Under the pieces are notes generated by a model, which did not search any database, was not told the DNA's origin, and worked only from the letters and a program-made list of their open reading frames with translations. This document shows, in pieces, positions 3,691 to 38,930 of a DNA stretch of 64,000 nt; the stretch's first letter is position 1; each line of letters opens with the position of its first letter. The position numbers and the translations under genes were made by a program. Origin of the DNA: Candidatus Eiseniibacteriota bacterium. Its GTDB lineage: Bacteria; Orphanbacterota; Orphanbacteria; Orphanbacterales; Orphanbacteraceae. Where the stretch lies: positions 1 to 64,000 of the forward strand of contig JBDROZ010000025.1 in assembly GCA_043809585.1 (NCBI GenBank), in the 5' to 3' direction.

Positions 3691-3871
3691 TAGCCTGGAT
3701 TATGCACAAATCTCCTACTGCGATCTCGGATCGCCGCCTGCGAAGCCTCCTTTCCTTCGCCGCCTCCTCGAAGTAGTGCATGACTACACCTCCGGTGGCG
3801 GCTCGTCCAAGTCAGCTTCTCGTCAGGCGATCCGAGCCCTCGTGACGGAGATTCATGCATAATCCAGGCTA
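3691..3871. mobile_element. MITE-like element copy 1 (TA-flanked, ~25-bp terminal inverted repeats, nested hairpins)
   Basis: TAGCCTGGATTATGCACAAATCTCC ... GGAGATTCATGCATAATCCAGGCTA (2 mismatches); inner stems CTCGGATCGCC/GGCGATCCGAG and GTAGT-GCATG-ACTAC; homologous to 52833-53105. Confidence 0.75.
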
Positions 3872-4489
3872 GAAGACGCTGAGAGCCTCGGTGAGATTCT
3901 CGATCGCCCTGATCAGCTCCAGAACGAAGGTAGCCGAGTTCGGGTTGAGGAGGATCGCCGAGTCGACGGCCTCGATCTGGTCGAGGGCTTCCAGATACTC
4001 GCCGAGGGCGAAATAGGACTGGGCCATGGAGAGCCGCACGTCCCGGACGTCGACGGTGATATCCGCTTCGAGCTCGAACCTGGAATCGATGGCCAACACC
4101 GCCTGGCCCGCGAAGACGCACTGGCGGTATTCGTCGAACCGGTTCAGGATCACGCACCGTCCCGCCTGGGCGTCTGCACCCACGAACCCCTTGGCCACCG
4201 CCATGTTGAATGCATCCAGGGCCGTTTCGAGCGAATCGAGCCGGAGGTAGGACCACCCCCGCCCGTTGTGACCATCGCCGATGCCCCCGTTCATGGCGAC
4301 GGCTTCGTCGAACTCGATGATGGCGCCGGTGTAGTCTCCCGCGGAAAAGAGGGCCCATCCGGCGTCGAGTTTCTCCACTACCGGATCCACCTGGGGGCCC
4401 GGATTCTCGTCGCCGCAGCCGATGAGAAGCGCGGCGGGAAGGAGCGCGATCGCCGCGACGATCCGACGGGGCCGCTTCGATTGAGTCAT
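3869..4489 (-). CDS. TPR-containing lipoprotein
   Basis: Likely start MTQSK (4489); basic N-terminus, hydrophobic stretch and lipobox LLIG-C; TPR-like helices (GWALFSAGDYTGAIIEFDEAV, NGRGWSYLRL, AQSYFALGEYLEAL). Directly follows the 2207-aa gene. Confidence 0.8.
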   Translation of the reverse strand: MTQSKRPRRIVAAIALLPAALLIGCGDENPGPQVDPVVEKLDAGWALFSAGDYTGAIIEFDEAVAMNGGIGDGHNGRGWSYLRLDSLETALDAFNMAVAKGFVGADAQAGRCVILNRFDEYRQCVFAGQAVLAIDSRFELEADITVDVRDVRLSMAQSYFALGEYLEALDQIEAVDSAILLNPNSATFVLELIRAIENLTEALSVF

Positions 4490-4511
4490 GACGAACTTCC
4501 CTTCCTCCACG

Positions 4512-7500
4512 CTAACGGATCAACATCATCTTGCGGACGGCCGTGTCTTCGCCCGCCGTGAGACGATAGAAGTAGACGCCCGAGCCGACCGAACGACTGT
4601 GATCGTCTTTGCCGTCCCAGGAATAGTCGTAGCGCCCCGCCGGCAGGGGGGCGTCCTCGAGAACCCGGATCTGCCGCCCCCGAATGTCGTACACCCGGAG
4701 CGAAACCTCTTCCCGGACGGGAATGTCGAAGACGATCCGCGTGACCGGATTGAACGGGTTCGGCGTGTTCCCGTAGAGGGCGAAGGTCTTCGGCACGACC
4801 GTCCCGCTCCGGATTTCGGCGGAGTGGAAGAGCGCGAAAGTGCCCCCCCCCTCGACGGTGGCGACCACTTCCTCCCGCGCGGGATCGACCCGGGATTCCA
4901 CGTGAGCCCAGCCGTCTTCCTCCAGCCGGTAGAGGGCGAGACCGGAGAAATCCTCCGTTTCCACACCGAGGCCGGCCGCGCCGACGGTCAACTCGATCGG
5001 CCCCCTCGGTGCGATCTGGGTCAGGTGCAGCGTGTACGGTCCGGCGAGAGGCCGCTCGGGCCCGTCGTTCTTCTCGAGGACCTCCATGAGCGCCACGCCG
5101 CTCTTCCCGAAGGACGAAGCCGGAACCCGGACGAGCAAGCGCCGGTCGGTGCTCCGCATGACCCCGTCCTTCCCCGTCACGAACTGACGGGACGAGAAGA
5201 ACCGCCGGACGGTGCCTACCTTTCCGCAGAGGTCGACGGCCCTGGCCTCCACGATCAGCGTATCCGCTGTCCGAAGCTCCAGATTGTCGCTCCGGAAGAT
5301 CGAGAGAGCCGTGTCGCTTCGTTCCATCTCCACTTCGGTCGAGTCGAAGTTGTACACGGTCAGGAGAAGCGTATCGTTCCCGATGACGACCTCCTCCTGC
5401 TCCTCGTCGGCGTACATCATCCGGAGGAGGATCGAGTCCCGTCTGATCGTCTCGGTAGGGATGACGTAGACGTTCGCCGCTCCGGGAATCGTCGAGTGAA
5501 GCACGAACGCGATCGTGAGCCCGGGGCTCACCGTGTCGGCGCAGACCGGATCGCTGAGACGGGCTTGGCCGATGTGGGCGTTCAGGTCCGAGAGGGGATC
5601 GCTCCCCGCGAACAGCATGGGCGAACACTCCTGATAAGTGAAGAAGTCCGTCTTCGCCCGGTGGAAGAGGGTATCAACCGGGTTTCGGGTGTTGCAGAAG
5701 AGCGGATTCGTCGAGACGGAGCCTTCCCCACCCTCCAGGTTGCGGAACTGCCCGGACGAGTTGGCCCAGACGTTGTTGTAGGAGAGTTCTGGTTTGCGGA
5801 TACCGTCGAAGTAGGGGAAGAGACCGATGCCGTACCCGCCGTTCCGGGTGACCACGTTGTTGCGGATGATCACGCTCCCCTCGGGCTCCGAGAGGGAGAT
5901 CGCCCCGCGGGCGTTCTTCCGGAACACGTTGTTGTCGATCGACGCCCCACCCGTCAGTTTCTCCATGCGGAGGCCGCCGTACTCGTCCGCCTCGTTCTCG
6001 GAGAAGATGTTCCCCCGAATCACCGGATCGGAGGTGCGGAAGAGATAGACGGCGCCTCCGACCCCCCCCTCGTTACGGTAGAAGTAGTTGTCGTAGATTC
6101 GGGGAGAAACCGCGTCGGACATGGAGATGGCGCCTCCCCAGTTCTTACTCGAGTTCTTCTCGAACCAACAGTCCCGGATCGTGGGGCTTGCCCCATCCAG
6201 GCAACGGATCGCGCCGCCGTTCGTCAGCTCCGCCCGTCCGTTGACGAACATGATGCCGGAAACCACCGTGGAAGAATCGATGATCAGCGTGCCGTTCTCG
6301 GCCGCCTCCCCGGACTGACGGATCGTGAGAAGGGACCCCGCGCTGCGCTGGAAGTTCCGCCATCCCGGCGCGGCGATCACGGTGCGGAGATTGAATGAGT
6401 CGGGGTGGGGGTGCTCCAGGGTAAACGCCGCGTCGAAGCCGCCCCGGAGCACGACCGGCTTGTCGAGGGTCAGCACGCCGTCGTAGACCGCCCCATCCAG
6501 AGGAAGATCGTTGTTCGGGCCCGAACCGGCGACATCAATGGTGTCTCCGGGATTCACCCGGTCGAAAACGACCGACAGGGAACGGGCGGCGTTCTGGGAA
6601 CAGACATAGGGGAAAACGGGCCGGTTGATGTTGGTATGGTCCCAATAGACGAGGAAGCGGTGTCCCGGCCGGGTGCAGCCGACGCCCTCCGACCCCCAGA
6701 CCGTGACGGCGCACTGGTCCCGAATCGGGCTTTCACCGGCAGTGATCGCGTCCAGATCGAAGAGCACGCCGTACTTCTCCGCCTCGCGATCGCAGAATCC
6801 GGGGTCCGCGATCACGTGGGCGCCGCCATGTCCCAGGGGGAGCGAATCGCCCCCCGCGTTCTGCCAGAAGAGGTTGTTCCTGACGTAAGCGGTGTCCCCC
6901 TCGAAGAAGAACCCGGATCCGCCCGTCGAGTAGGCGACGATGTTCTTGTAGAACCTCGGATTGGAACCGGTGAGGTGCACCACGCCCCCCGTGTCCACGG
7001 TGCAGTGATTGTCCGCAAAGGTGTTCAACGTGCAGCGCGAGGTCGTTTGGAACTCGGCCCCGACGCTCTGCACCATATAAAGTCCGGCCCCCACTTCGGC
7101 CGTGTCCCCGTACACCAGGTTCCGGGCGAGAATCGGGACGGCCCCCTCGGCGACGTAGATCCCGCCTCCGAGAGTCGCATCGCAATGGCGGATGTAGTTG
7201 TCATAGACCTGGGGGCGGCCGGCTTTCTCGACGCGGATCCCTCCTCCGAGATCGCCCTTTCCTCCCTGGACCGTGAACCCGTCGAACCTCGTGGTCCTGC
7301 GCCCGACGCCTCCGGCGCCGGAGTCGATCACCACCGCCGTCCCGCTCCCCGCGGCGTCGATGATCGTGCGGTTCGCGTCCGGGTCTCGAACTCCGAATCC
7401 CGACGTGTAACCACCGAGCACCCTCACGTTGGTGGGCACCCGGATGGACCCGGTGTACGTTCCCGCCGCGACACGCACCTCGTCGGTCGAGTCCGCCGGG

Positions 7501-10500
7501 TTCGAGAACCCGGCCAGCGACGCAACGTCGAGGGCGTCCTGCAGGTTGTGGGCGGCCGTGGCGGCCGTCGCGTAGGGGTACACGTTCGATCCAGAGAGAC
7601 TCACAAAGTGCCGGGGAGTGCTGCAGCCGACGCCCAGCGCCCCGATGATGGTGCCGTTCCGGCCGGCCGCCACGTTCGGGGAATGATCGAAGACGGTGTA
7701 AATGTACTGGTCCCGCCGGCAGTAGAGCGGGCCGTTCGAGATATTCGCCTGGCCCGTCGAGTCAAAGTCGACGTCGTAGTCGACGTCGTGACGGAACACG
7801 TTGTTGTGATCGAAGATCACGCCCGTGCTCCCCGTCGCCCGCACTCCGTTGTCGTTGTAAGTGATCGAATTGTTGTAGAGCTCCGGAGCGCACCCGTCCA
7901 CCCAGACCGCCCATCCGCCGCCCCGGTTGTCGGTGATGGTGTTGTCCGCGAGAAGCCCCCCGGCTCCCGCGAGATGAATGATCGCACCCTCATCGTCCAC
8001 CGAGTTCAAGTAGAACTGATTGTTCTCGAATCGCGGAGCGGCGTCCTCGATCGCGAGGACCGCTCCGCCGGTGATATTCGCCCGGCTCTCGATGATCTTG
8101 CAGTTCGTGAATCGGGGTGTGGCGTTTCCCCTCAGAAAGATGGCCCCGCCCGAGTCGGCCCGGCCCCCCGCGATGTTGATCCCGTCGACCCAGGTGGTGC
8201 TGTCGACTCCGTCCCCTCCGAATACGACTCGATGGGCCGAGTTCCCTGCGATCCGGGAGACCCGCCCCCGGTTGTTGTCCCGGAAGGTCTCGACGCTGTA
8301 GCCTCCCTTGTAGACAACGCCCCCCACGAGCTCGAACTCGTCCTCGAAAGAACCCCCGCCGATCTTGACCGTGTCTCCCGCGGTGAGGAGGGAATCGAGC
8401 CACGAGATCTTCCGGGACGCCGAATTCCGTCCCGAGAACGGGAAGCGGGCATTCGATGAGGCCGGGTTCACGAGCCAGACCTCGTTATCGCAAATGCAGC
8501 GGGACGAGATCTTGAGGGCGCCGATCACCGTGTCCCCCGAGACGCTCGCGATGGCCGGAGAACAAGTGCTCAGTTTGAAATCGCCCCCCTCCGTGTCGCA
8601 GAAGAGAGGGTCCCGGACCTTGATCTTCGTGGAATCGAACGTGACGAACGGGGAGACGGAAACATAGTTGCTGTCCGCGGCCGCGGCGTTCACGTTTCCG
8701 AAGCTTATGTTGCGCACGAACTCGACCCACACGTCGTCGAGGACGAGGCCGGCGCGGCCCCCCTCGTTGAACGCGAAAATGTTATCCCTGAAGCTGAACT
8801 TGTCCGTCGAGCCGACTCCGGCGAACCGTATGAATATGCCCGACGCCGCAAGGTCCGAGGTCGCCGCGCCTTCCATGACGTTCTCGGCGATCGTGTTGTT
8901 CCGTAGCGTCGCCACCGACTGGCTGTCGACGTTGGCCCCTTGGATGATCACGCCCGCCGCCCGATGGTCCGGACGGGAAACGAAGTCGACCCGGTTCGCG
9001 TGAACCGTGTTCCTGCGCAGAACGGGCCTCGCTCCCCTCCGGACCAGGATTCCCGGACCGTTCACGCCGTCCGCGTGGGTGATGAAGAACCCGTCGAGTC
9101 CCCCCTTCGGGGCGAACTGGGAAGCGAACCCGTCGAAAGTCACCGTCGGCTCTCCGGCGACGGTTCCCCGGAGCACGGTCGGGTAGACCGCATGGTTTCG
9201 CTTGGTGAAAGTGCTGTCGTTCCACCCCCCCTCGAGGTAGATCCCCTTGGAGACGGTGAAGACCCCGTCGTACGTCCCGCTCGCCAGCCGAATCGTGTCG
9301 GCCGGAAGAGCGATGGCGAGAACCTTCGAGATGTCCGACGTGGCGTTCGCGGGGGATTGATAGGGGAAGACGCCGTCCCCGGCGGTGGTGAAGACGTAGT
9401 GGGAGGAGAAGTTGCAGCCCACCGAAAGGGCCCCGAGGGGCGTTCCCCCCGGCGCCGGGTCGTTCAGGTCCCCTTCGGAATAGAAGCGGAAGTCTCCGTT
9501 GGCGGGGTCGCAGAAGAAGGGGTTCGTGCGGGTCGTGTCGGAAAGGGAGGGGGAACAACCAGGCGCGAACTCCTGCTCGTTCTCGTAAAAGTTGCTCTGC
9601 TCGATGGTCAGGCCGCCGTCGCACTCGAAGACGGCCGCTCCTTCGTTCATCGCCGCCATTCCGTACCGGAACAGCATCGACGCCCCCGAAGAGATCCGGA
9701 TGAGGGAGCCCGAGAAAGCCGCGTCGTTGCCCACGACGGAGATGTGGTCCAAAGTCGCCGCGCCTTCGCCGATATCGAGAAGCGCGCCGTCCCCGTCAAA
9801 GGCCCCGGTCAGCACGAGATAGGAGAAGTTCGTGGCGGCGCTTCCCTGGATCCGGATCGCGGGACTCTCCGCCTCGGCCGGCCGGATCCGCGTTCCGAGG
9901 AGGAACGGATCGAACACGTTGAAATTGGCGTCCCACCCCCCCTCGAGGACGATCCCCGCGGGAATCACCACGTTTTCGACATACGTTCCGGAGGCGACAC
10001 GGATCGTGTCTCCCGGAGAGGTGATGGTCAGCACATCGGCGATGGAGGTCGCCGCCTTGTTCGGTTCGTCGTAGGGGAAGACGTCCCGACCCGTCTGGAT
10101 CGAAACGTACTTGGTCCCCGCCCGGCAGCCGATGCCCCACGCCCCGGGGGTTTCCCCGTTCGCACCGGCACCGAGGATGGGTGATTCCAGGAAGATCCGG
10201 TAGTCCTGATCCACGTCGTTGCAGAAGACCGGGTTCGTGGCGAATAGGTTCGTCCCGTCCCCGGAGCACCCGACAATGTCGTTTCCCCCGTTGTCGAAGA
10301 ACACGTTGTAAGCGATCAGCGGGGAATCGGCCGCGCCATCACAGGAGATCCCGTAGCCGTCGGCGATGGCGTAGATGATGTTGTTCCGGATCGTCGGACT
10401 GCCCCCCGCGACGTGGATTGCACCGGCCTCCTGATCGGAAACCGTGAAGGCCACCGTGTTGTGCTCGATCCGGGGCGAGCCCCCCCCGACGAAAACGGCC

Positions 10501-11135
10501 CCGCCTCTTCCGACGGTCTTGTTGTCGACGAGAACGTTGTGCGTGATCGTGGGGGACCCGACTCGGATCGTGACGCCCCCTCCGTCCCCGGTGGTCCGGT
10601 TCGTGCCGAGAACGGCGAAACCGGAGAAGACGGTGTTGCTGTCCGGCCCGCTCAAGACCCACGCCGTGTCGATGACGAGATCGGGGTCGGTTCCCGTCGT
10701 GTCGAACACCATGAAGGAATCGACCTCGAACTCCACCCCCAGGTTGCCCGCCGGCGTGAGGAACGTCCAGAGACTGTCGGGGGCGAAGAGCCGCTGGTCG
10801 ACGGATGCCCCGAAACCGGCGAACGCGGCCGCGATGTCCCATCCGCCGAGGAGCACGACACCCTTCGGAATCGTGGCGGAGCCCGGGTACGAACGGCCGG
10901 TGGTGAGAAAAGCGCGGAATGGAATGCCGGCGACGAGCACCGTATCGCCGGGGACCGAAAGGTCGAGCGCTCCTTGCACCGTTCCCGCCGCGAAGAAAGG
11001 ATTGTCGTACGGCGGGACGGGGACGTTGCCGAACTGAGTCGTGTTCGCGACGTACCGGGTCGCCCCTTCCGCGCCGCAGGGCGGGATCAGGAGCAGGCCC
11101 GCGAGGATCAGGAAGAACGCGTTTCGGCCCTTCAT
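4512..11135 (-). CDS. Large secreted protein (2207 aa): six tandem right-handed beta-helix modules plus C-terminal FlgD-Ig/T9SS-type sorting domain
   Basis: Signal peptide MKGRNAFFLILAGLLLIPPCGAEG. Repeated modules YV..FPY..A..GDT(I/V)..GTY..GG(W/Y)...GGA(I/V)..P.I.NN...NP.FC...GA..VGC. C-terminus YGNTPNPFNPVTRI.F...VYDIRGR...WDGKD...SGVYFYRL...RKMMLIR. AGGAG SD. Confidence 0.9.
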   Translation of the reverse strand: MKGRNAFFLILAGLLLIPPCGAEGATRYVANTTQFGNVPVPPYDNPFFAAGTVQGALDLSVPGDTVLVAGIPFRAFLTTGRSYPGSATIPKGVVLLGGWDIAAAFAGFGASVDQRLFAPDSLWTFLTPAGNLGVEFEVDSFMVFDTTGTDPDLVIDTAWVLSGPDSNTVFSGFAVLGTNRTTGDGGGVTIRVGSPTITHNVLVDNKTVGRGGAVFVGGGSPRIEHNTVAFTVSDQEAGAIHVAGGSPTIRNNIIYAIADGYGISCDGAADSPLIAYNVFFDNGGNDIVGCSGDGTNLFATNPVFCNDVDQDYRIFLESPILGAGANGETPGAWGIGCRAGTKYVSIQTGRDVFPYDEPNKAATSIADVLTITSPGDTIRVASGTYVENVVIPAGIVLEGGWDANFNVFDPFLLGTRIRPAEAESPAIRIQGSAATNFSYLVLTGAFDGDGALLDIGEGAATLDHISVVGNDAAFSGSLIRISSGASMLFRYGMAAMNEGAAVFECDGGLTIEQSNFYENEQEFAPGCSPSLSDTTRTNPFFCDPANGDFRFYSEGDLNDPAPGGTPLGALSVGCNFSSHYVFTTAGDGVFPYQSPANATSDISKVLAIALPADTIRLASGTYDGVFTVSKGIYLEGGWNDSTFTKRNHAVYPTVLRGTVAGEPTVTFDGFASQFAPKGGLDGFFITHADGVNGPGILVRRGARPVLRRNTVHANRVDFVSRPDHRAAGVIIQGANVDSQSVATLRNNTIAENVMEGAATSDLAASGIFIRFAGVGSTDKFSFRDNIFAFNEGGRAGLVLDDVWVEFVRNISFGNVNAAAADSNYVSVSPFVTFDSTKIKVRDPLFCDTEGGDFKLSTCSPAIASVSGDTVIGALKISSRCICDNEVWLVNPASSNARFPFSGRNSASRKISWLDSLLTAGDTVKIGGGSFEDEFELVGGVVYKGGYSVETFRDNNRGRVSRIAGNSAHRVVFGGDGVDSTTWVDGINIAGGRADSGGAIFLRGNATPRFTNCKIIESRANITGGAVLAIEDAAPRFENNQFYLNSVDDEGAIIHLAGAGGLLADNTITDNRGGGWAVWVDGCAPELYNNSITYNDNGVRATGSTGVIFDHNNVFRHDVDYDVDFDSTGQANISNGPLYCRRDQYIYTVFDHSPNVAAGRNGTIIGALGVGCSTPRHFVSLSGSNVYPYATAATAAHNLQDALDVASLAGFSNPADSTDEVRVAAGTYTGSIRVPTNVRVLGGYTSGFGVRDPDANRTIIDAAGSGTAVVIDSGAGGVGRRTTRFDGFTVQGGKGDLGGGIRVEKAGRPQVYDNYIRHCDATLGGGIYVAEGAVPILARNLVYGDTAEVGAGLYMVQSVGAEFQTTSRCTLNTFADNHCTVDTGGVVHLTGSNPRFYKNIVAYSTGGSGFFFEGDTAYVRNNLFWQNAGGDSLPLGHGGAHVIADPGFCDREAEKYGVLFDLDAITAGESPIRDQCAVTVWGSEGVGCTRPGHRFLVYWDHTNINRPVFPYVCSQNAARSLSVVFDRVNPGDTIDVAGSGPNNDLPLDGAVYDGVLTLDKPVVLRGGFDAAFTLEHPHPDSFNLRTVIAAPGWRNFQRSAGSLLTIRQSGEAAENGTLIIDSSTVVSGIMFVNGRAELTNGGAIRCLDGASPTIRDCWFEKNSSKNWGGAISMSDAVSPRIYDNYFYRNEGGVGGAVYLFRTSDPVIRGNIFSENEADEYGGLRMEKLTGGASIDNNVFRKNARGAISLSEPEGSVIIRNNVVTRNGGYGIGLFPYFDGIRKPELSYNNVWANSSGQFRNLEGGEGSVSTNPLFCNTRNPVDTLFHRAKTDFFTYQECSPMLFAGSDPLSDLNAHIGQARLSDPVCADTVSPGLTIAFVLHSTIPGAANVYVIPTETIRRDSILLRMMYADEEQEEVVIGNDTLLLTVYNFDSTEVEMERSDTALSIFRSDNLELRTADTLIVEARAVDLCGKVGTVRRFFSSRQFVTGKDGVMRSTDRRLLVRVPASSFGKSGVALMEVLEKNDGPERPLAGPYTLHLTQIAPRGPIELTVGAAGLGVETEDFSGLALYRLEEDGWAHVESRVDPAREEVVATVEGGGTFALFHSAEIRSGTVVPKTFALYGNTPNPFNPVTRIVFDIPVREEVSLRVYDIRGRQIRVLEDAPLPAGRYDYSWDGKDDHSRSVGSGVYFYRLTAGEDTAVRKMMLIR

Positions 11136-26912: not shown

Positions 26913-26924
26913 GACAAGAACCGA

Positions 26925-29222: not shown

Positions 29223-30196
29223 GGAGACCCTCCTTCCGGGGCCTCCCGGGAACCACCGAAGAATCCGCGAAGTCCATAGACCACCCCGCCGATCAGTCCG
29301 TTGAAGACGAAGATGCCGTAAATCAGGATGGCGAGGAAGACCGATTGGGTATCGGTCACACCGAAGAGACGGAGCATGAGAATCATCACGCCTTCCCGGA
29401 TCCCGATCCCGGAGAGGGAGATGGGGAGCATCCTCCCCACCTCGACGAGGGGCATGATCAGGAAGAAGTGGGCGGGCCGGAGGTCGATGCCCACCGACTC
29501 GGCGAGCACCCAACAGCTGTACACCCAAACCGCCCGGGAGAGGAGCGAGAGGAGGAGCGCCGCGAGCACCGGCCCCTTGCGGTCCTTGTAGGCGTCGAGG
29601 CAGTCGTACAGGCGCCCCGCCTTTCTCTTCGCGTCGAACCGCTCGAGCATGGGCGTGAGGGGCCGGAGGAGAGGCTCGATCCGACGGATCGTGCGACGGC
29701 GGATCGCGAGGGTGCCGAAGAGGAAGAGCGCCGCCATCCCGGCCTCGGCGACGAGGAACCACCCGCGCTCGGGGAGCCCCGGATAGAGAGCGGCGAAGGC
29801 GACGATGCCGATCGGGAAGAGCGCGTAGAGACCGAGCAGGCGCTCGACCATGATCGAAGCCATCGCCGACGACCGGTCCTTCGTGTGCCGGGCGAGATCG
29901 AGCACCCGCATCACGTCGCCGCCGATCGACGTGGGCATGAAGTTGTTGAAGAACATGCAGACGAAGTAATAGGAGGCGAGCCTCGGCAGGGAGACGATCG
30001 CCCCGAGGGGCCGGACCAGCACCCTCCATCTCCAGGTGTTCAGCGCCACCATGACCAGGTTGAGCGCGTACCCGAGAAGAAGGAGGCCCACGCGAACCTC
30101 TCCCAGCACCGACCGGAACTCCCCCCAGTCGACCCGGGAGATGACGAACCCGACCAGGACGACGGTGATGATGAGACGGATGATCTTGCCCGTCAA
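29219..30196 (-). CDS. Lysylphosphatidylglycerol-synthase-TM / UPF0104 flippase-like membrane protein
   Basis: RW..L, FFNNFMPTSIGGDVMR, ERLLG and LPISLSGIGIREG motifs. Confidence 0.85.
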   Translation of the reverse strand: MTGKIIRLIITVVLVGFVISRVDWGEFRSVLGEVRVGLLLLGYALNLVMVALNTWRWRVLVRPLGAIVSLPRLASYYFVCMFFNNFMPTSIGGDVMRVLDLARHTKDRSSAMASIMVERLLGLYALFPIGIVAFAALYPGLPERGWFLVAEAGMAALFLFGTLAIRRRTIRRIEPLLRPLTPMLERFDAKRKAGRLYDCLDAYKDRKGPVLAALLLSLLSRAVWVYSCWVLAESVGIDLRPAHFFLIMPLVEVGRMLPISLSGIGIREGVMILMLRLFGVTDTQSVFLAILIYGIFVFNGLIGGVVYGLRGFFGGSREAPEGGSP

Positions 30197-31770: not shown

Positions 31771-33433
31771 ACCCCATCCCTTTCAGGCGGTCGATGATCT
31801 CCTGCCGCTCCGAGTCGCCGAGATCGAGCTCCTCCTTCGCCTTCGTCTCGTAGGGCGGGCGGAAGCGCACCGGGTGCTCCCGAAGCCAAGTCTCGCGGAG
31901 CGCCCTCTCGGCCACCTTCCCGTCCATGTCTTCCGGGACTTCGAGGCCGAGCAGGTGGAGGATCGTGGGGGCCATGTCGCAGATCGAGAACCCCTCCATC
32001 CGTTCCGCCCCGGACCGGACCGGGCCGCCCCGGGCGAAGAAGACGCCGTCCATCCGGTGATCGCCCGAATTTCCGAAGGTGGGCTCCACGAAACGGCGGG
32101 TCGTGAAGTCGACGATGCCGAGGGCTTTGTACTTCATATCCGAAGGGATGAAGAGCACGTCGGGCATCCGCTCTACGTAAGGGCCCTCGTACCGCTCCTC
32201 CCGGGTGAAGACCTCACCGAGAAGGGGACCGTTCCCCGCCGGGTCGGGAATGGCGGCGAGCTTCTCCCGGAGGTCGGCCACCACGGCGTCGTACTCTTCC
32301 GGAGCGACCGACCCGGAGGGTTCCCGCCCCCGGAGATTCACGTAGATCTGGCCGTAGTTCCCTTTCGAGTAGGCCCGGGTCCTCTCCCAGTCGATGTTCT
32401 CGAGGGAGAGGAAGATCCGGTTGATCAGGTCGAAGAGGCCCGAACGCCCCCCGACCCCCTTCGAGAGTCGGAGCCCCGCGAGACCGAGACGCATGGCGGT
32501 CCGGTACCCGAAGGCGGGCGTGATGCCCATCCGGAAGAGGACCTTCTTCAGGCGCGTGGCGGCGTCCCGCTTCAGCGCGAGAAACCCCTTGTCCAGGAGC
32601 CAGACGTTGAAGTTCAGGTAGTCGTGGATCGGCCCGAAGCCGTGGTCGGACATGACGATCTCCGTCACTTCCCCCTTCGACCCGGCGGTCTCGGCGATCT
32701 CCCGCGCCGCGTCGTCCACTTCCCGATAGAACTCGAGGATTCGCGGCTTGTACCGGGCCACCTCCTTCGGGTCCGAGTGGGGGTGGTTCTCGTCGAAGAT
32801 GTGCCACACCTCGTGCTGCAGGCGGTCGGTCCCTTCGAAGTAGGCGATGGCGAAGTCCCACTCCCGCTCGCGGAGGAGCTTCAGCGCCACCTTCCGCCGG
32901 TATCCGAGAATCTCGAACGCCTCGTCGAGGACTTGGCCGACCTTCCCCTTCTGATAGACCTCTTTGTGGTAGATCGGGTACGGCCCGAACTCCCTTTCGA
33001 GCTCGGCGAGAAGTTCCGGCGGATGGGTGAAATCCCGCGCCCCCCGAGGCGTCAGGAATCCGCTGATGAGACTGCCGTTCACCTTGTCGGGCGGGTAGGT
33101 GACCGGGATCCCGAGAACGACGACCCTCTTCCCCTCCCGGGAGATGATCTCCCAGAGAGGGATGCCGTCCCGCACGGTGGCGTTCACCGGGCGCTGCTCT
33201 TCGAGTCCGCCCCGGGTGTAGAGGAATTCGAAGATCCCCGTCTTGCCCGGATTCTTTCCGGTCATGAACGACACCCAGGCGGGGGCCGTGATCGGCGGGA
33301 AGACCGACCGGAGCGGGGCCGTCGCCCCTTCCTTCCGGAGGGAGGCGAGGTAGGGCATGATCCCGTCGTCCATCCACGGGTCGAGGGTGTCGAAGGTGAC
33401 GCCGTCGATGCCGATGACGAGCACGCGGCTCAT
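31760..33433 (-). CDS. Alkaline phosphatase superfamily protein (type I phosphodiesterase/nucleotide pyrophosphatase-like)
   Basis: Start MSRVLVIGIDG (ATGA overlap); PPITAPAW (Thr nucleophile), TGKNPGKTG, DRLQH, SDHGF, GDHR; C-terminal RLKGMGY; no signal peptide. Confidence 0.88.
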   Translation of the reverse strand: MSRVLVIGIDGVTFDTLDPWMDDGIMPYLASLRKEGATAPLRSVFPPITAPAWVSFMTGKNPGKTGIFEFLYTRGGLEEQRPVNATVRDGIPLWEIISREGKRVVVLGIPVTYPPDKVNGSLISGFLTPRGARDFTHPPELLAELEREFGPYPIYHKEVYQKGKVGQVLDEAFEILGYRRKVALKLLREREWDFAIAYFEGTDRLQHEVWHIFDENHPHSDPKEVARYKPRILEFYREVDDAAREIAETAGSKGEVTEIVMSDHGFGPIHDYLNFNVWLLDKGFLALKRDAATRLKKVLFRMGITPAFGYRTAMRLGLAGLRLSKGVGGRSGLFDLINRIFLSLENIDWERTRAYSKGNYGQIYVNLRGREPSGSVAPEEYDAVVADLREKLAAIPDPAGNGPLLGEVFTREERYEGPYVERMPDVLFIPSDMKYKALGIVDFTTRRFVEPTFGNSGDHRMDGVFFARGGPVRSGAERMEGFSICDMAPTILHLLGLEVPEDMDGKVAERALRETWLREHPVRFRPPYETKAKEELDLGDSERQEIIDRLKGMGYVG

Positions 33434-35775
33434 TCCGTTCTCCTCCGCCGCGGCGCGGCGGCGAGCAGGATCATAACGAGCAGGGCGGCCGACGAGAGGG
33501 CCGCGCCGAAGCGCAAGCTCCGGGGCCGGTAGCGGAAGTCTATCACATGCTCCCCTTCCGGCACCGGGACCGCCCGGAAGGCGTAATCGGCCCGGTAGAG
33601 GGTCGCCGGCCCGCCGTCCACCGTCGCCTCCCAACCCGGGTACCATGCGTCGGCGAGGAAGAGGAATCCCGGGGACCGGGCGACGACTCCCACGGTCACC
33701 CGGTCCGGTTCGTACCTCTGAATATCGGCAGAACCGCCGCGGGGCGCCACCGGAGCGGGCGGCCCCTGCCCTTCGAGCAGGAGGGTTTCGGCGGGATCGA
33801 ATTCCGGCGAGCGGAGGCGGAGGAGGATCGCCGCCCCGCTCAGGTACTCCCACCGTCCGTGGAAGGTCGCCCGGGGGAGGGGCCGTGGTCCCGGCATCGG
33901 GAGAATCCCCCCCGAATCGTCCACCCCGTAGACCCGGGCGCCGAGAATCCGAAGCGCGGGCGACTTCAGGCTCTCGAGCCGCTGGAGCGGGCGATAACGG
34001 CGGTAGGAGTAGAGTCCCGGCTCGATCGTCTCCATCAGCTTCCGGTAGCGCTCCAGGTTGAGGGCGTTGATGCCGGCCGTGTCGTCGATGCCGAAGAGAG
34101 AGGCCGTGGCCGGAGGAAGGAAGTCGGTCGCCGCCGGCCCGTACCGGGCGATGCGCCCGTCCGGTCCCACGTCCTCCCGGATCCGGAGGATCTCCGGCGT
34201 CTCCCGAAAGGTGGAGTCCCGGGGAAGGTCGAGATGGAACCGGGCGCCGAAGAGGTAGAGGTCCGCCCCGGCGAGGAGGGCGAGGAGGGCGACGATCCCG
34301 GCGGAAGGGATCCGTCTCCGGACGAGAACGAGAAGGAGACCGGCGGCGGCGAAGAGAGCGGTGGTCGCCGAGGAACGGAGGGCCGTGGCGGAGAGATTCG
34401 CGAGGGGGACCCTTGCCTTCAAGAGCAGGACGACGCCGTTCGTCACGGGAGCCCGTCCCCGGAGAAGCCCCTCGATGATCGGTTCCCGGAAGAGGGCGAG
34501 GGCCGCCGCGCCGGCGAGAAGGACGACGAACCCGGCGAGGACGAACGGCGGGGTTTTCCGGGCCCGGTCCGAGAGGCGATCCACGCCGAAGCCGAACCCG
34601 ATCGCCGTCGCGAAGAGAGGGAGCAGGATCAGGCGGTCGGGACGGGAGAAGCGGAAGCCGGGAAGGCGCCACGCGATGTCGGCGAGGGGCGTCCCGGCGA
34701 GCACGAGCAGGGGGAAGAGGAAGAGCCCCGCGAAGAAGAGCCGGCGCCGGCCCGTGAAGATTCCGTACAGGCCGATCACCAGGGGAAGGGCACCGAAGTA
34801 GTTCAGGGTGGAGACGTAGTTCTGCCGGAACATCCCGTTCCCGGTCCGGAAGAGCGTGGACCAGAGCGTCTCGTTCACCGGGTTGCCGAAAAAGTCGGGG
34901 GCGAGGATCCGGAGCGCCATCAGGGGGTGGTGCGTGCCGGAGCGAAATGTGGCGAGATCCGCCGCCTCCCGGGTGGAGAGCCGGAGGAACTCGAGCGTCG
35001 GGAGAAGCTGCGCCGCGGCGAGAAGAAGGGAGAGCGCGATCGCGGCGCCGAAGGTGCACGCCGTCCGCGCCCGCGGGCGCTCCTTCGAGATCAGCGCGGC
35101 GAGGGAGAAGAAGGCGAGGACGTAGTAGATGTGAAGGAGCATCTGCGGGAAACCGGCGAAGGCGGCGAGGGCGAGGGGGAGGGCGAGAACCCCGGTGCTC
35201 CGGAATCCCGGGCGCCGGGCGGCCCGCTCGGCGGCGAGGACGACCGCCGGAAGCCACGCCGCCGTGGCGACGAAGGTCGGGTGGCCGATCCGGGTCATGA
35301 AGAACGGGTTCAGCTCGAAGACGAGGGCCGCCGCGACGGACGCCCCCCGGCCGATCCCGAAGGCGCGGGCCGCGAGGTAGGCGAAGAGCCCGCCGAGGAA
35401 GAAGTGGATCGCCACGAACCATCCCATGCCGGTCATGGCGTCGGTTGTCAGGGCGAGGATCAGGTTTACCGGATAGAAGAGGGCGGACTGGAAGTTGGCG
35501 AGGAAGGGCTGGCCTGCGAAAGTGGTCGGGTCCCAGAGAGGGAAATCACCCCGCCTCATCCACTCGTGGGTGAAGGCGCGGCGCGGATAATAGGCGAGGG
35601 CGCAGTCCGTGTTCACCGCGGGGGGTGCGATCTCCCCGGGCGAGGCGTGTTCCTTCCAGGGGACCCAGCGGTTCGGATTGCACGGGATCTCGGCCCGGCC
35701 TTGAAAAAGGGACCCCCGGAAGAAGATCAAGACGACGGCGAGAAGAAGGAGTGGTGGAAGGATGCGTTTCGCCAT
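33430..35775 (-). CDS. YfhO-family GT-C membrane protein
   Basis: D....YYP...PLWDP..F.GQPFLANFQSALFYP.N; C-terminal LADAWYPGWEATVDG...FRAVPVPEGEH.I.FRY.P. Confidence 0.87.
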   Translation of the reverse strand: MAKRILPPLLLLAVVLIFFRGSLFQGRAEIPCNPNRWVPWKEHASPGEIAPPAVNTDCALAYYPRRAFTHEWMRRGDFPLWDPTTFAGQPFLANFQSALFYPVNLILALTTDAMTGMGWFVAIHFFLGGLFAYLAARAFGIGRGASVAAALVFELNPFFMTRIGHPTFVATAAWLPAVVLAAERAARRPGFRSTGVLALPLALAAFAGFPQMLLHIYYVLAFFSLAALISKERPRARTACTFGAAIALSLLLAAAQLLPTLEFLRLSTREAADLATFRSGTHHPLMALRILAPDFFGNPVNETLWSTLFRTGNGMFRQNYVSTLNYFGALPLVIGLYGIFTGRRRLFFAGLFLFPLLVLAGTPLADIAWRLPGFRFSRPDRLILLPLFATAIGFGFGVDRLSDRARKTPPFVLAGFVVLLAGAAALALFREPIIEGLLRGRAPVTNGVVLLLKARVPLANLSATALRSSATTALFAAAGLLLVLVRRRIPSAGIVALLALLAGADLYLFGARFHLDLPRDSTFRETPEILRIREDVGPDGRIARYGPAATDFLPPATASLFGIDDTAGINALNLERYRKLMETIEPGLYSYRRYRPLQRLESLKSPALRILGARVYGVDDSGGILPMPGPRPLPRATFHGRWEYLSGAAILLRLRSPEFDPAETLLLEGQGPPAPVAPRGGSADIQRYEPDRVTVGVVARSPGFLFLADAWYPGWEATVDGGPATLYRADYAFRAVPVPEGEHVIDFRYRPRSLRFGAALSSAALLVMILLAAAPRRRRTE

Positions 35776-35787
35776 GGCACCCGCAGG

Positions 35788-38208
35788 CTATCGGCTTTCG
35801 GAGCCGCGGCGCAAGAAGATAAACCGGCGGAAGAAGAGAAGAAGCGCCGCAATCAGAAGAGAGACCTGGGTGATCGCGGCGCCCGTCCGGAAAGAGCGCG
35901 GATCGTAACGGAACTCCACGCGATGCACGCCCGGGGGCACCACGACGCCCCGAAAGATCCGGTTCGTCTTCAGGATCTCCGCCCTCTCGCCGTCGACGGT
36001 CGCCACCCACCCGGGGAAGTACGGGTCGCGGAGGAGAAGCAGCCGGCCCCGGGTCGCCGCGCAATCGACCACTACCCTCTCCGGCTCCCGGGAGACGATC
36101 TTCGCCTGGTCCTCGATCATCGACGAAGGATCGAGGGACGTTTCCCTCCCCCCGTGGGAATCGAGCCAGCCGCCTACGGTGGTTCCCGAAAGGACCGAGT
36201 CCTTCGAGAGGGCGGGGGGCTTTTCTTCGAAAACGGCGGCGTCTCTACCTCCGATCATCGCGAGCACCCTTTCCGCCTCTCTCCCATCGACGGCCCGCAC
36301 GACACGGCCCGCGAGAACCGCGCGGGATCCGGCCCGGAGGTTCTCGTAGATTTTCACGGGCCCGTCAAAGCGCAATTGGACGCCTGCGGTTCGAATCGTC
36401 TCCTGAGTGATGATCCAGCGGGCGCCGAGTTCGGCCAGCTGGCCCGACCCGAGGTCGGCGAGGGATTCGAGAGGATTGATCCTCCTCTCCCTGACCGACT
36501 CGGGCGCGAATGACTCGTAGTACTCCCGGTAGTCCCGGATGTTGAGCGCGTTGTAGCCGGCCACGTCCTCGATGCCGAACAGGCCGGGCAGGTTCGGCGG
36601 GAGGACCGGGTCCCGGTAGCGGACGATCCGCCCCTCCTTCGACCACTCCCGGAGGAGCCGGATCTCCTCCGTCTCCCGGGGGAGCTCCTCCCTTCCCACC
36701 GTCACGTGGCAGGGGCGGGAGACGAGGGCCGGGTCGAGCACGAGCATCCCACCGGCGAAGATCATGAGGACCGCCCTCCGGCGGAATCGCGCCGGAACGA
36801 GAAAGAGGGCCGCCGACCCGAAGAGAAAGACCGAAGCATGAAACGCGCGCGCGCCGTGAGGGGCGTCCGAAAGAGAGGAGACCGCGCCCGGCCCCGCAAG
36901 GAACGAAACGACCGACTCCCGCCCGAAGTAGAGTGCCGCCGTGGCGAGGCCGAGAAGGAACGCCGTGGCGATCGCCGTCCTCCCCCCCTTCCCTTCCCGC
37001 CAGCGGTCGAAGCCGAACGCGGCGACCGCCGTCAGCGCGAGGAGGGCGACGTGGACGATCCGGTCGACCCGCGCCCCTCCGGCGAGAGGAAGGGCGGAGA
37101 CGACGCGAAGGAGGGGCGTGCCGAGGAGAATCAGGGCGGCGACGATCCCGGAGAGGACGAGGAACCGCCCGGACCGGTCCCGCCACGCCCCGCCAAAGCC
37201 GGCGGCGGCGAAGACCAGGGCCCCGACGCCGACGTACGCGGCGGTGGAGAGGTAGGACTGCCAGTAGTGGGCGTCCCCCCGGAGCAGGAGATGAATCCAC
37301 GAGTCCCCGTCGAAGGGGGTGCCAAAGAAGTCGGGGGCGATCATGCGGACGAGCGCCGCCGGGTGCCAGGAAGAGGAGACCAGCGCCGGGTAGGCGAAAC
37401 GGACCCGGTCGGACCAGGCGGCGAGCTCGGCCGTCGGAAGGAGCTGGGCCGCGGCGATCCCGACGCCGAGGAGGAAGCCGGCGGTGATCTTCACGACCGG
37501 CCCGTTCCCGGCCTCCGCCCTGACCCCCCACCACCGGTGGAGCGCCCACGCCCCGGCGAGAAGGCTCGACCAGATCAGGATCGGCGGGAAACCGGCGAGG
37601 ATCGCCCCGGCGTAGACGAGTCCGAAAAGCGCGAGGCTCCCCTTCCCCTCCGCCGTCCGCCCCGCGACGTGCGCGAGGAGGGGGAGCCACGCGGCAGCGG
37701 CGAGCATGGTCGGCTGGCCGGTCCGGACCGCGAGGGCGCCCCCCGTCGCGTAGAGAAGGCCTCCCACGAGGCCCCCCCCCAGGGAGCGCCCCATCCCACG
37801 GAACAAGAGCGCCCCCCCCCACCCCGCGAGCACAAGGTGGAGCCAGACGAAGATCCCCATCTGCCGCGCCGGAGAGAAGGGGAGCAGCGCGAGGTTCACG
37901 GGATAGAAAACGCCGGACTGGAAATTCGCGAGGAAGGGCTGGCCGCAGAAGGAGGTCGGGTCCCAGAGGGGCACCCGCCCCGCCCGGAGCGCCTCGGTGG
38001 CGAGAACGCGCCTCGGATAGTAGGAACGGATGCAGTCGGCGTTGAAGGAGGGCTCCCCGGGCGACTCCGGGCCCCACGGCGCGTACCGGTCCGCCCGGAA
38101 GGTGATCAGGTACCGGCCCGGCGCGAGGTCCATGGAGAAGAGGGCGAGAAGGGCGAGGGGCACCGTGAACAAGAGGAGGAACGTTCGCCTGGAGGCGGTC
38201 CCGTTCAT
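35788..38208 (-). CDS. YfhO-family GT-C membrane protein (paralog)
   Basis: Start MNGTAS (ATGA overlap with GT2); DCIRSYYPRR...PLWDPTSFCGQPFLANFQSGVFYP; YFPGWVATVDG...FRGVVVPPGVHRVEFRY. Confidence 0.87.
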   Translation of the reverse strand: MNGTASRRTFLLLFTVPLALLALFSMDLAPGRYLITFRADRYAPWGPESPGEPSFNADCIRSYYPRRVLATEALRAGRVPLWDPTSFCGQPFLANFQSGVFYPVNLALLPFSPARQMGIFVWLHLVLAGWGGALLFRGMGRSLGGGLVGGLLYATGGALAVRTGQPTMLAAAAWLPLLAHVAGRTAEGKGSLALFGLVYAGAILAGFPPILIWSSLLAGAWALHRWWGVRAEAGNGPVVKITAGFLLGVGIAAAQLLPTAELAAWSDRVRFAYPALVSSSWHPAALVRMIAPDFFGTPFDGDSWIHLLLRGDAHYWQSYLSTAAYVGVGALVFAAAGFGGAWRDRSGRFLVLSGIVAALILLGTPLLRVVSALPLAGGARVDRIVHVALLALTAVAAFGFDRWREGKGGRTAIATAFLLGLATAALYFGRESVVSFLAGPGAVSSLSDAPHGARAFHASVFLFGSAALFLVPARFRRRAVLMIFAGGMLVLDPALVSRPCHVTVGREELPRETEEIRLLREWSKEGRIVRYRDPVLPPNLPGLFGIEDVAGYNALNIRDYREYYESFAPESVRERRINPLESLADLGSGQLAELGARWIITQETIRTAGVQLRFDGPVKIYENLRAGSRAVLAGRVVRAVDGREAERVLAMIGGRDAAVFEEKPPALSKDSVLSGTTVGGWLDSHGGRETSLDPSSMIEDQAKIVSREPERVVVDCAATRGRLLLLRDPYFPGWVATVDGERAEILKTNRIFRGVVVPPGVHRVEFRYDPRSFRTGAAITQVSLLIAALLLFFRRFIFLRRGSESR

Positions 38209-38930
38209 GGGCGGCGAGGGTCTCCCGTGCCGCCGGAGCGGAAGTAGATCTTGATCCACATGTCCACGAGTTCCCGGATCGTGGAGAACACGTGGCTCGG
38301 CCGGACCGTCGAACTGCCCGCCTTCCGCGGGTAGTGGCGGACGCCGATCTCGGTCACCTTGAGGCCGTGCTTCCGCGCCTTGGCGAGAATCTCCGTGTCG
38401 ATGAAGAACTTCTTCGACTCGATGCGGATGACGTCGAACACCTCGCGACGGAACAGCTTGAACGCGCAGTCGATGTCCCGGACCCGGATGCGGAAGAGCG
38501 TCCGGGCGACCAGGTTGTACCCCCATGCGAGGAAGAGGCGCGAGAGCGGGTCGAAGCGGTAGATGCGGAAGCCCACGACCATGTCGTAGTCCTCGATCGC
38601 CCGGAGGAAGTTCTTCAGTTCCTTCAGGTCGAACTGGTTGTCCGAGTCGGAGTAGAAGATGTACTTCTTCGCGGCGCCGTCGAAGCCCGTCTTGAGGGCC
38701 TGGGCATACCCCTTGTTCTTCTCGTGCTTGAGAAGGCGGATGCGGGGCTCCGCGGCGGCGAGGGCTTCCACTCTGGCCGCCGTGGAGTCCAGGCTCCCGT
38801 CGTCGACGAAGAGGACTTCCCAGTCGGGGACGCCGGCGAGTTCCACCGCCTCGATCGCGCGGCGGGCCGCTTCGTCGACGTTCTCCTCCTCGTTGTACGC
38901 GGGGAAGACGATGCTGATCTCTTCGACCAT
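38205..38930 (-). CDS. GT2 polyprenol-phosphate glycosyltransferase (DPM1/ArnC-like)
   Basis: SIVFPAYNEE, VDDGS.D.T, NKGYAQA, DSDNQF, DIDCAFKLFRR, R..G.S; soluble, about 241 aa. Confidence 0.9.
   Translation of the reverse strand: MVEEISIVFPAYNEEENVDEAARRAIEAVELAGVPDWEVLFVDDGSLDSTAARVEALAAAEPRIRLLKHEKNKGYAQALKTGFDGAAKKYIFYSDSDNQFDLKELKNFLRAIEDYDMVVGFRIYRFDPLSRLFLAWGYNLVARTLFRIRVRDIDCAFKLFRREVFDVIRIESKKFFIDTEILAKARKHGLKVTEIGVRHYPRKAGSSTVRPSHVFSTIRELVDMWIKIYFRSGGTGDPRRP

Follow-up and report, generated by a model that had tools for sequence, protein, structure and literature searches.

The DNA analysed here comprises 64,000 nucleotides, positions 1 to 64,000 of contig JBDROZ010000025.1 (C25:1-64000; hereafter the window), from the genome of a Candidatus Eiseniibacteriota bacterium (assembly GCA_043809585.1; hereafter G000; 4.24 Mb, 66% G+C, 123 contigs). 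It contains an operon for glycosyltransferases, several of them of the GT-C type, and beside it genes for exported proteins in which the tripeptide D-[ST]-[AILVMT] is frequent. To our knowledge this tripeptide, the O-glycosylation sequon of Bacteroidota, is the sole defined bacterial O-glycosylation motif. G000 belongs to a lineage related to Bacteroidota and possesses a type IX secretion system (T9SS). We observed that the motif is enriched, specific in its residues and selectively conserved. Throughout the genome, T9SS cargo and lipoproteins appear to be modified at an acceptor motif of the Bacteroidota type, D-(S/T)-(L/I/V/T/A/M), most likely by a GT-C glycosyltransferase, a reading to which we give about an even chance. 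On these two classes of proteins, in a lineage outside Bacteroidota, the motif has the properties of a sequon in use, and the interpretation given in the original prediction is partly supported.

The sequon was counted as D-[ST]-[AILVMT], and the expectation for each protein came from 1000 shuffles within that protein, which keep its composition. Genes were called with a home-made codon log-odds caller (3119 genes, 85% coding density). Proteins were classed by a home-made heuristic that considers signal peptide, lipobox and hydrophobic segments and tries nearby alternative starts. The motif-rich proteins of the window are the following.

3869..4510, minus strand: TPR lipoprotein, 213 aa (Pfam TPR families; lipobox by the home-made heuristic; orthologs in G003 and G004)
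4512..11135, minus strand: right-handed beta-helix protein with a T9SS-type C-terminal domain (CTD), 2207 aa (Beta_helix 138.4 bits, FlgD_ig 27.7 bits; match to the CTD hidden Markov model, HMM)
12399..13919, minus strand: exported protein with T9SS-type CTD, 506 aa (CTD HMM match; no Pfam family)
14343..16373, minus strand: lipoprotein, 676 aa (no Pfam family)
16389..18713, minus strand: exported LVIVD-repeat beta-propeller protein, 774 aa (Pfam LVIVD 75.4 bits)
19125..22637, minus strand: T9SS cargo protein, 1170 aa (Por_Secre_tail 34.5 bits, cut-off 27; FlgD_ig 44 bits)
23060..24733, minus strand: PD40/beta-propeller lipoprotein, 557 aa, given as 560 aa in the original prediction (Pfam PD40 45.7 bits)

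The original prediction was built on nine hand counts, all of which are exact: 27, 12, 10, 7, 7 and 5 in six of these proteins versus 0 in GlyS, 1 in AspS and 3 in PPDK. The 27 sequons of the 2207-aa protein and the 12 of the 774-aa protein compare with 8.2 ± 2.7 and 3.0 ± 1.6 expected, and none of the 1000 shuffles reached either count. Shuffling also gave an excess for the 1170-aa protein (10 versus 4.8 ± 2.1; P=0.022), the 676-aa lipoprotein (7 versus about 2.5; P=0.010) and the 506-aa protein (7 versus about 3.0; P=0.025). The PD40 lipoprotein taken alone was not significant (5 versus about 3.0; P=0.18), and the TPR lipoprotein has 2 sequons versus 0.5 expected. Pooled, the seven proteins contain 70 sites versus 25 expected, an observed/expected ratio (O/E) of 2.82 (bootstrap 2.19-3.35). 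It had been cautioned that some sequons might be structural parts of the beta-helix. This holds for five of the 27 sites in the 2207-aa protein, which form a repeated cap motif P/A-G/A-D-T-[IV], and not for the remaining 22, which lie in unrelated contexts.

These seven proteins are strong examples of a class that extends over the whole genome. The T9SS core is represented by SprA (532.7 bits summed) and two PorU-type sortases (551 and 520 bits; cut-off 420), and sorting domains are present both as the Por_Secre_tail of the 1170-aa protein and as 166 matches to a home-made CTD HMM. With O/E taken as observed over composition-expected motif count, the 166 CTD proteins hold 982 sites versus 555 expected (O/E 1.77; bootstrap over proteins 1.57-1.99), 110 of them being above their own expectation. 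Other lipoproteins (n=117) hold 184 sites versus 119 (O/E 1.54), and membrane proteins (n=791) and cytoplasmic proteins (n=1374) gave 0.89 and 0.93. Because 976 of the 982 sites in the CTD set have distinct nine-residue contexts, the excess is not explained by exact repeats. It is largest in CTD proteins above 2000 aa (O/E 2.54) and is still 1.54 (bootstrap 1.35-1.73) in those of at most 1000 aa. The sorting domain itself is depleted: the last 90 residues of the 166 proteins contain 12 sites versus 36 expected (O/E 0.33).

The residue rules are those of Bacteroidota, namely Asp and not Glu or Asn, then Ser or Thr, then L/I/V/T/A/M(/S). In the CTD set the neighbouring patterns E-[ST]-phi (0.96), N-[ST]-phi (0.83), G-[ST]-phi (1.02) and D-[ST]-non-phi (0.76), as well as the reversed motif (0.88), were not enriched (phi being the residue class of the third position). 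At position -1 Asp alone stands out, with 1.8 in CTD proteins and 1.5 in lipoproteins versus 2.7 in the positive controls described below. At position 0 of the CTD proteins Ser (2.0) is favoured over Thr (1.6), the corresponding values in the positives being 3.3 and 2.1. The order at position +1 is L 2.5, I 1.9, V 1.8, T 1.7, M 1.3 and A 1.2, with F, W and Y at 1.0 or less. This +1 profile correlates with that of the positives with Pearson coefficients of 0.85 (CTD proteins) and 0.82 (lipoproteins) versus 0.30 for cytoplasmic proteins of G000; flanking positions from -4 to +4 show a weak likeness (0.14-0.48). The preferred-residue order given for Bacteroidota in the available text of a 2025 review (PMC12871550), where Ser is accepted at +1, agrees with the G000 profiles.

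The same pipeline was calibrated on 400-kb samples of other genomes. Two genomes of the phylum of G080 served as positive controls. In that phylum 13 of 26 sampled genomes carry SusD, in up to 31 copies, and it was called Bacteroidota from this content, SusD being found among 14 named control genomes in Bacteroides thetaiotaomicron only. The SusD-bearing genome G059 was dropped as a positive control because in its phylum SusD occurred in only 9 of 26 genomes, with one or two matches each. In the positives O/E was 2.88 and 2.41 for exported proteins and 1.03 and 0.74 for cytoplasmic ones; exported non-CTD proteins gave 2.5-2.9 and membrane proteins 1.45-1.57. Two unrelated genomes gave 1.03 and 1.07, and 59 loci from other phyla 0.86. 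Since the positives are high and unrelated genomes lie near 1.0, the test has power and the signal in G000 is real. The split between CTD proteins and other exported proteins was seen again in the same-family genome G002 (1.40 versus 0.87) and in G074, an unrelated T9SS-bearing genome (1.56 versus 0.81).

It might be supposed that T9SS cargo is rich in the motif by its nature. CTD proteins sampled from eight other T9SS-bearing lineages gave the following values.

G013: 8 CTD proteins, O/E 2.61
G037: 8 CTD proteins, O/E 2.54
G025: 15 CTD proteins, O/E 2.17
G028: 4 CTD proteins, O/E 2.08
G011: 8 CTD proteins, O/E 1.53
G020: 1 CTD protein, O/E 0.80
G071: 12 CTD proteins (15,816 aa), O/E 0.56
G065: 4 CTD proteins, O/E 0.25

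Because the cargo of G071 and G065 is motif-poor, enrichment is not inherent to T9SS cargo. It is a property of lineages and not of this protein class. In these two unrelated lineages (loci L230-L241 and L266-L269) the cargo is depleted below the neutral value of about 1, which hints at avoidance of the motif in some lineages.

Two further observations concern T9SS genes at the far end of the window. An open reading frame (ORF) of 414 aa at 57151-58395 (minus strand) has a low coding score (18.7) and is likely another cargo gene; its C-terminus matches the sorting-domain part of the sortase model (G000:C25:57196-57417). Just past the window, at G000:C25:64670-69349, lies a gene for a 1559-aa protein with a CTD of its own and 15 sequons versus 5.5 expected. 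Over the N-terminal half of the PorU-type sortase model this protein scores 151 bits, which is below the cut-off.

Conservation of the motif in relatives

The motif is kept in orthologs of the window proteins. In three genomes of the same family the pooled orthologs gave O/E values of 2.36, 2.93 and 3.25. Sequon numbers are 32 and 27 in orthologs of the 2207-aa protein, 9, 12 and 8 for the 506-aa protein, 6, 6 and 10 for the 676-aa lipoprotein and 5-7 for the PD40 lipoprotein, including 6 in G009, a genome of the same class. Twelve orthologs of the 774-aa protein have 7-11 sequons each versus 2.2-4.2 expected. Five sites of this protein (S/T 424, 556, 595, 600 and 618) are kept in 10-12 of the 13 sequences, and there the Asp is fixed while Ser/Thr and the hydrophobic residue vary.

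Of 640 ordered comparisons between orthologs at aligned columns, 392 (61%) retained the motif. Retention of the other X-[ST]-phi classes, 19 in number, was 4-37% (32% for N, 29% each for E and G). Conservation within the motif was 0.81 for D, 0.78 for S/T and 0.83 for the hydrophobic class; elsewhere in the same proteins the values were 0.60, 0.53 and 0.75. Swaps at +1 within the permitted set accounted for 185 of 635 comparisons, and Ser was the most frequent residue outside it. The negative control consisted of 121 reciprocal-best pairs of proteins from G000 and the G002 sample, among them 51 cytoplasmic and 7 CTD pairs. In CTD pairs D-[ST]-phi was retained in 38 of 69 cases (0.55) versus 0.20 for other tripeptides; in cytoplasmic pairs there was no excess (26 of 89, or 0.29, versus 0.33).

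The GT-C operon and the GT-C repertoire

The original prediction had placed a locus with a family 2 glycosyltransferase (GT2), a flippase-like protein and five GT-C proteins directly beside the exported proteins. Pfam, NCBIfam and homologs bear this out, and they reveal in addition a conserved phosphodiesterase gene, located midway along the operon, that had been missed.

24984..26912, plus strand: polytopic membrane protein, GT39/PMT_2/DUF8201-like GT-C, 642 aa (homologs and feature matches; no Pfam match of its own)
26925..29222, minus strand: GT-C (PMT_2) with C-terminal TPR repeats, 765 aa (PMT_2 34.4 bits, cut-off 26.1; many TPR families)
29219..30196, minus strand: LPG_synthase_TM or "flippase-like domain" membrane protein, 325 aa (PF03706 160.6 bits; TIGR00374 75 bits, cut-off 43.2)
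30193..31770, minus strand: PMT_2-like GT-C, 525 aa (PMT_2 23.9 bits, under the cut-off of 26.1)
31760..33433, minus strand: alkaline-phosphatase-superfamily phosphodiesterase without signal peptide, 557 aa (PF01663 137.7 bits)
33430..35775, minus strand: YfhO-family GT-C "A" (YfhO_A), 766-781 aa (PF09586 58.1 bits, cut-off 28.5)
35788..38208, minus strand: YfhO-family GT-C "B" (YfhO_B), 806 aa (PF09586 47.1 bits, cut-off 28.5; 273 bits to YfhO_A)
38205..38930, minus strand: GT2 without membrane helices, 241 aa, candidate polyprenol-phosphate-sugar synthase (PF00535 101.7 bits; first operon gene after glyQS)

Read along the minus strand, glyQ and glyS are followed by GT2, YfhO_B, YfhO_A, phosphodiesterase, 525-aa PMT_2-like protein, LPG_synthase_TM and PMT_2+TPR. 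The start of the GT2 gene overlaps its neighbour by 4 nt, and throughout the stretch that begins with GT2 and ends with PMT_2+TPR adjacent genes either overlap, by 4-11 nt, or are at most 57 nt apart. The gene of the 642-aa protein lies on the plus strand between this operon and the exported genes. Beyond it, again on the minus strand, are the genes of the PD40 lipoprotein, the 1170-aa cargo protein, the LVIVD protein, the 676-aa lipoprotein, the 506-aa CTD protein, asparaginase II, the beta-helix giant and the TPR lipoprotein, followed by ppdK. Gene order is kept over the whole array in G002, G003 and G004, which belong to the same family (41-66% identity), and, up to the contig ends, in G005 and G009. 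Linkage of the operon to the exported genes in related metagenome-assembled genomes (MAGs), for which the original prediction had asked, was thus found.

Four of the five GT-C assignments come from Pfam, two YfhO proteins and one PMT_2 protein being above the cut-off and one PMT_2 protein at 23.9 versus 26.1 bits; GT-C genes and the GT2 gene share one operon, the fold being predicted from the families. The 642-aa protein was placed by language-model neighbours (feature matches of 0.99 to ArnT/PMT_2/DUF8201 clusters) and by homologs carrying PF13231/PF26626, one of which is named "glycosyltransferase family 39 protein". The 525-aa protein had no NCBIfam match and is conserved in all relatives examined. 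In two of seven relatives its ortholog consists of two adjacent pieces in different frames (L187, G001 10685-12243; L188, G005 10769-12339), which may suggest a frameshift or a sequencing error. The 765-aa protein combines PMT_2 (residues 55-206) with TPR (residues 434-581), a GT-C + TPR architecture; a sequence search of the PDB matched only its TPR part, and homologs of its N-terminal domain were found in G074 only of five genomes and in none of three Bacteroidota-like ones. For the phosphodiesterase the PDB search gave one weak match, to a phosphonoacetate hydrolase. The GT2 has partial NCBIfam matches to ArnC (second-best), PgfS, AglJ, a Dol-P-hexose transferase and PpgS, all far below the cut-offs. 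The flippase candidate is of the MprF-type LPG_synthase_TM/TIGR00374 family and not of the small GtrA/GtcA or ArnE/F type. We know of no established case in which LPG_synthase_TM proteins flip polyprenol-phosphate sugars.

YfhO_A and YfhO_B match PF09586 mostly through the C-terminal region. YfhO_A also has weak C-terminal NCBIfam matches to PgfM2/PgfM1 and had no match at E<=1 in the PDB sequence search. Among the five G000 paralogs it is the best match to the YfhO of the Bacteroidota-like genome G112 (67.8 bits). By bit scores the Bacteroidota-like YfhO group is nearer to the YfhO of G074, and the YfhO pair of the window groups with a paralog on contig C44. The Pfam YfhO model gave sub-threshold matches in G025, G028, G065 and G071 and none in G037. 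A Bacteroidota-like YfhO query detected full-length homologs in all nine T9SS-bearing genomes tested and none in G069. We rejected YfhO presence as a correlate of enrichment, because in this small sample it follows T9SS-type lineages and not enrichment; as to YfhO being the enzyme, the sample speaks neither for nor against it. PMT_2 counts (G013 9, G025 4, G037 4, G071 0, G065 2) did not discriminate cleanly in the same small sample, nor did TMEM260-like proteins, which were present in five of five genomes.

G000 contains 37 GT-C-like genes with at least five membrane segments. For a genome of 4.2 Mb this repertoire is unusually large: about 20 PMT_2+TPR-like, 7 TMEM260-like, 4 TMTC-like and 5 YfhO proteins. 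At G000:C111:21838-45258 (L206) there is a second large glycan locus, which ends at a CTD protein. It encodes two YfhO proteins, an LPG_synthase_TM protein, two membrane proteins with TPR repeats, one of them TMEM260-like (PF11028, 143.8 bits), and several GT2/GT4-like glycosyltransferases. A third YfhO, at G000:C44:41814-47845 (L209), is possibly a split gene, with one ORF of 255 aa beside another of 582 aa. Its neighbours are a GT2 and two lipoproteins; the lipoprotein 2.3 kb from this YfhO-GT2 pair has 8 sequons versus 2.1 expected.

The core cassette of phosphodiesterase, GT2 and LPG_synthase_TM recurs beside glyS in more distant relatives, and the phosphodiesterase gene stands beside the GT2 gene in every relative. 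Fifteen of 15 Blastocatellia loci carry GT2 and LPG_synthase_TM, with the phosphodiesterase next to GT2 in all 14 that have upstream DNA. In these MAG loci (L012-L026) the GT2 is 56-62% identical to that of the window, and up to four extra PF01663 paralogs and YfhO- or PMT_2-like genes are present. Eighteen exported proteins of the Blastocatellia loci gave an O/E of 1.05 ± 0.26, a set too small to be informative.

Proposed mechanism, alternatives and significance

We infer that the motif is glycosylated, probably in a cargo-restricted variant of Bacteroidota-type O-glycosylation, and propose the following route. After Sec export and before transport by the T9SS, the Ser or Thr of the motif would be O-glycosylated on the periplasmic face of the inner membrane by a GT-C glycosyltransferase using a polyprenol-phosphate-linked sugar. 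The adjoining operon could supply the parts for such a route: GT2, LPG_synthase_TM, PF01663 phosphodiesterase, two YfhO proteins and three PMT_2/GT39-like GT-Cs. YfhO_A would be the best single candidate for the enzyme, and the operon would be one of several candidate loci.

In its motif the proposed system resembles O-glycosylation in Bacteroidota: only Asp is used at -1, Ser is slightly favoured over Thr, L/I/V/T/A/M(/S) follow at +1, the motif is confined to non-cytoplasmic proteins and a YfhO homolog is present. It differs in the strength of the enrichment, in being limited to T9SS cargo and lipoproteins and in the host, which lies outside that phylum. The available text of the 2025 review (PMC12871550) calls the transferase responsible in Bacteroidota (OTase) "undiscovered"; a 2026 preprint (10.64898/2026.07.27.740950), in the part available, offers YfhO as an in silico prediction for it. 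The review text also describes motif enrichment in the sister phylum Fibrobacterota, and extension past Bacteroidota is therefore not unheard of. In our literature search we found no experimentally identified Bacteroidota OTase and no paper joining "Eisenbacteria" with "glycosylation". Nor did we find in print that the motif is restricted to surface-bound proteins, that T9SS lineages divide into motif-rich and motif-poor ones, or that the GT-C repertoire is large.

In its enzymes the operon resembles the three-component systems of extracytoplasmic glycosylation, in which a GT2 polyprenol-phosphate-sugar synthase works with a small flippase and a GT-C. Examples are CsbB/GtcA/YfhO for lipoteichoic acid and GtrB/PgtC2 or PgfS/PgfM1 for streptococcal proteins; the shared feature is a GT2 joined to YfhO-type GT-Cs in a tight operon. 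YfhO-family GT-Cs with a GT2 O-glycosylate Ser/Thr of exported streptococcal proteins, according to the available text of PMC12041528. The differences are that LPG_synthase_TM takes the place of GtrA/GtcA, that the GT2 is short (241 aa) and without membrane helices, and that five GT-Cs and a PF01663 phosphodiesterase stand in one cluster. Moreover, the streptococcal acceptors are S/T-rich disordered tails, whereas here the D-S/T-phi motif occurs in folded domains. Folded beta-rich acceptors are a feature of the eukaryotic GT-C + TPR protein O-mannosyltransferases TMTC1-4 and TMEM260, which act on cadherin and IPT beta-sandwich domains (PMC10214176, available part). The 765-aa protein has their architecture, the candidate acceptors of G000 are folded beta-rich domains too, and TMEM260-like + TPR proteins occur elsewhere in the genome; the likeness is at the level of architecture and family only. 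As to lipid A modification by ArnC/ArnT, the GT2 is partly ArnC-like and the GT-Cs are PMT_2/GT39-like, but the matches are far below the equivalog cut-offs (68.6 versus 529 bits) and no ArnA/B/D/E/F genes are present in the cluster.

Several observations weigh against use of the motif as a sequon as proposed. The 568 other signal-peptide proteins of G000 had an O/E of 1.00, and with membrane proteins at 0.89 the enrichment does not extend generally over periplasmic, inner- and outer-membrane proteins. The composition-controlled test that the original prediction had called for thus came out in its favour for CTD proteins and lipoproteins and not for exported proteins in general. The positives are enriched in all exported classes and more strongly (2.4-2.9 versus about 1.8 in G000), and their label "Bacteroidota" is itself taken from SusD content. 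In the 400-kb sample of G002 all exported proteins together gave 1.01 and the 11 CTD proteins only 1.40; the readable orthologs of the same-class genome G009 gave only 1.23. Both the gene caller and the signal-peptide predictor were home-made. As regards YfhO, full-length homologs are present in motif-poor G071 (108 bits) and G065 (76 bits), and the available text of the 2026 preprint describes Porphyromonas gingivalis as glycosylating although it lacks YfhO. Of the claim that the lineage glycosylates its secreted proteins there remain the excess over composition, for T9SS cargo and lipoproteins only, the Bacteroidota residue rules and the conservation in orthologs.

The most serious alternative, which we consider less probable than sequon use and on the whole improbable, is that the motif is conserved for another reason, for instance because it marks strand starts or turns or serves as a different recognition site in the surface proteins of this lineage, and that the operon modifies an envelope lipid or polysaccharide (lipid A, a glycolipid or an exopolymer) in the manner of ArnC/ArnT or CsbB/YfhO. 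It is conserved columns that account for the excess of the motif; sites specific to one lineage, which make up 60 of 128 columns, do not rise above the neutral expectation. The same picture would be expected if the motif were conserved for structure or for some other function, and turnover is therefore no means of telling a sequon from a structural motif. For the 774-aa protein an AlphaFold2 model (13 sequences, mean pLDDT 76.9) was used to map secondary structure without coordinates, so that the mapping is blind to burial. Seven of the 12 motif Asp residues lie 0-2 residues ahead of a strand start versus 34% of the other 50 Asp. Eleven of the 12 sites are in loops or at strand starts, two of them in a low-confidence loop; one is in the middle of a strand. 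The five beta-helix cap sites of the giant protein also fit a structural role. On the enzyme side, glycosyltransferases that act on lipids and teichoic acids are found in the YfhO and PMT_2/ArnT-like families (PMC5836110 and PMC8035078, in the parts available). The second-best NCBIfam match of the GT2 is ArnC. The cassette is common to Blastocatellia, which we take to lack a T9SS. Against a turn motif, however, N-[ST]-phi is depleted although Asn makes the same turns, and position +1 is enriched in T, M and A but not in aromatic residues, with which strands typically start. A structural need is also hard to reconcile with the motif-poor cargo of G071 and G065, with an enrichment spread over 110 of 166 CTD proteins and almost as many contexts as sites, and with three position profiles that match those of genomes where the motif is taken as a sequon.

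A narrower alternative, the original prediction taken in full, which we regard as unlikely, makes the adjoining operon dedicated machinery: the GT2 would make the polyprenol-phosphate sugar, LPG_synthase_TM would flip it and the five GT-Cs would glycosylate the sequons of the neighbouring proteins. It is favoured by the synteny of the array from GT2 to the TPR lipoprotein and by the four non-CTD exported neighbours, which have 26 sequons versus 9.0 expected, above the class values of 1.0-1.5. The position of YfhO_A as the closest relative in G000 of Bacteroidota-like YfhO and the second YfhO-GT2 pair, on C44 near a sequon-rich lipoprotein, point the same way. However, the housekeeping flanks recO, glyQS and ppdK are equally syntenic, so plain conserved gene order may explain the linkage, and the exported genes are separate transcription units behind the opposite-strand gene, with gaps mostly of 120-420 nt. 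For 133 of the 166 CTD proteins the nearest of the 37 GT-C-like genes is over 30 kb away, yet their O/E is 1.70, versus 2.05 for CTD proteins within 10 kb of such a gene. All 15 Blastocatellia loci have the core cassette without these exported genes, some with added PMT_2-like and YfhO genes. Since the window was chosen for this pattern, its local excess is post hoc. The operon is tied to the motif by adjacency alone, and adjacency is no evidence of service to these proteins. The original prediction of a system "encoded beside its substrates" therefore did not prove specific: sequon-rich proteins are found all over the genome, there are 37 GT-C-like genes, and sequon density is nearly independent of the distance to a GT-C gene.

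That chance, composition or paralogy, through internal repeats in beta proteins rich in D, S/T and hydrophobic residues, inflated the counts is hardly credible: giant repeat proteins do contribute most, and Big_2-like W-A-V-E-D-T-I-A units recur in one giant CTD protein, but shuffles, size classes and context counts gave this no support, and neither the reversed motif nor neighbouring residue classes were enriched.

We return to use of the motif as a sequon. T9SS-bearing lineages are split into motif-rich (O/E 1.4-2.9) and motif-poor ones (0.25-0.56), and phylogenetic profiling across this split could therefore identify the Bacteroidota OTase, which has been sought for more than 15 years. In its fullest form the proposal is tentative, and we hold it to be rather less likely than the general reading given at the outset: a candidate phylum outside Bacteroidota would use the sequon only on surface-bound proteins (T9SS cargo and lipoproteins), the sugar would come from a polyprenol-phosphate donor through a YfhO-type or TPR-bearing GT-C, and profiling of motif-rich and motif-poor T9SS lineages could find the OTase. 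The 37 GT-C-like genes, many with TPR domains, in a single 4.2-Mb genome are an unusual expansion. If the proposal is true, selection on the motif outside Bacteroidota would date the system before the split of these phyla and would show that the substrate range of sequon glycosylation can be restricted. A lineage outside Bacteroidota, together with the motif-poor T9SS lineages, would then offer a comparative handle on the enzyme.

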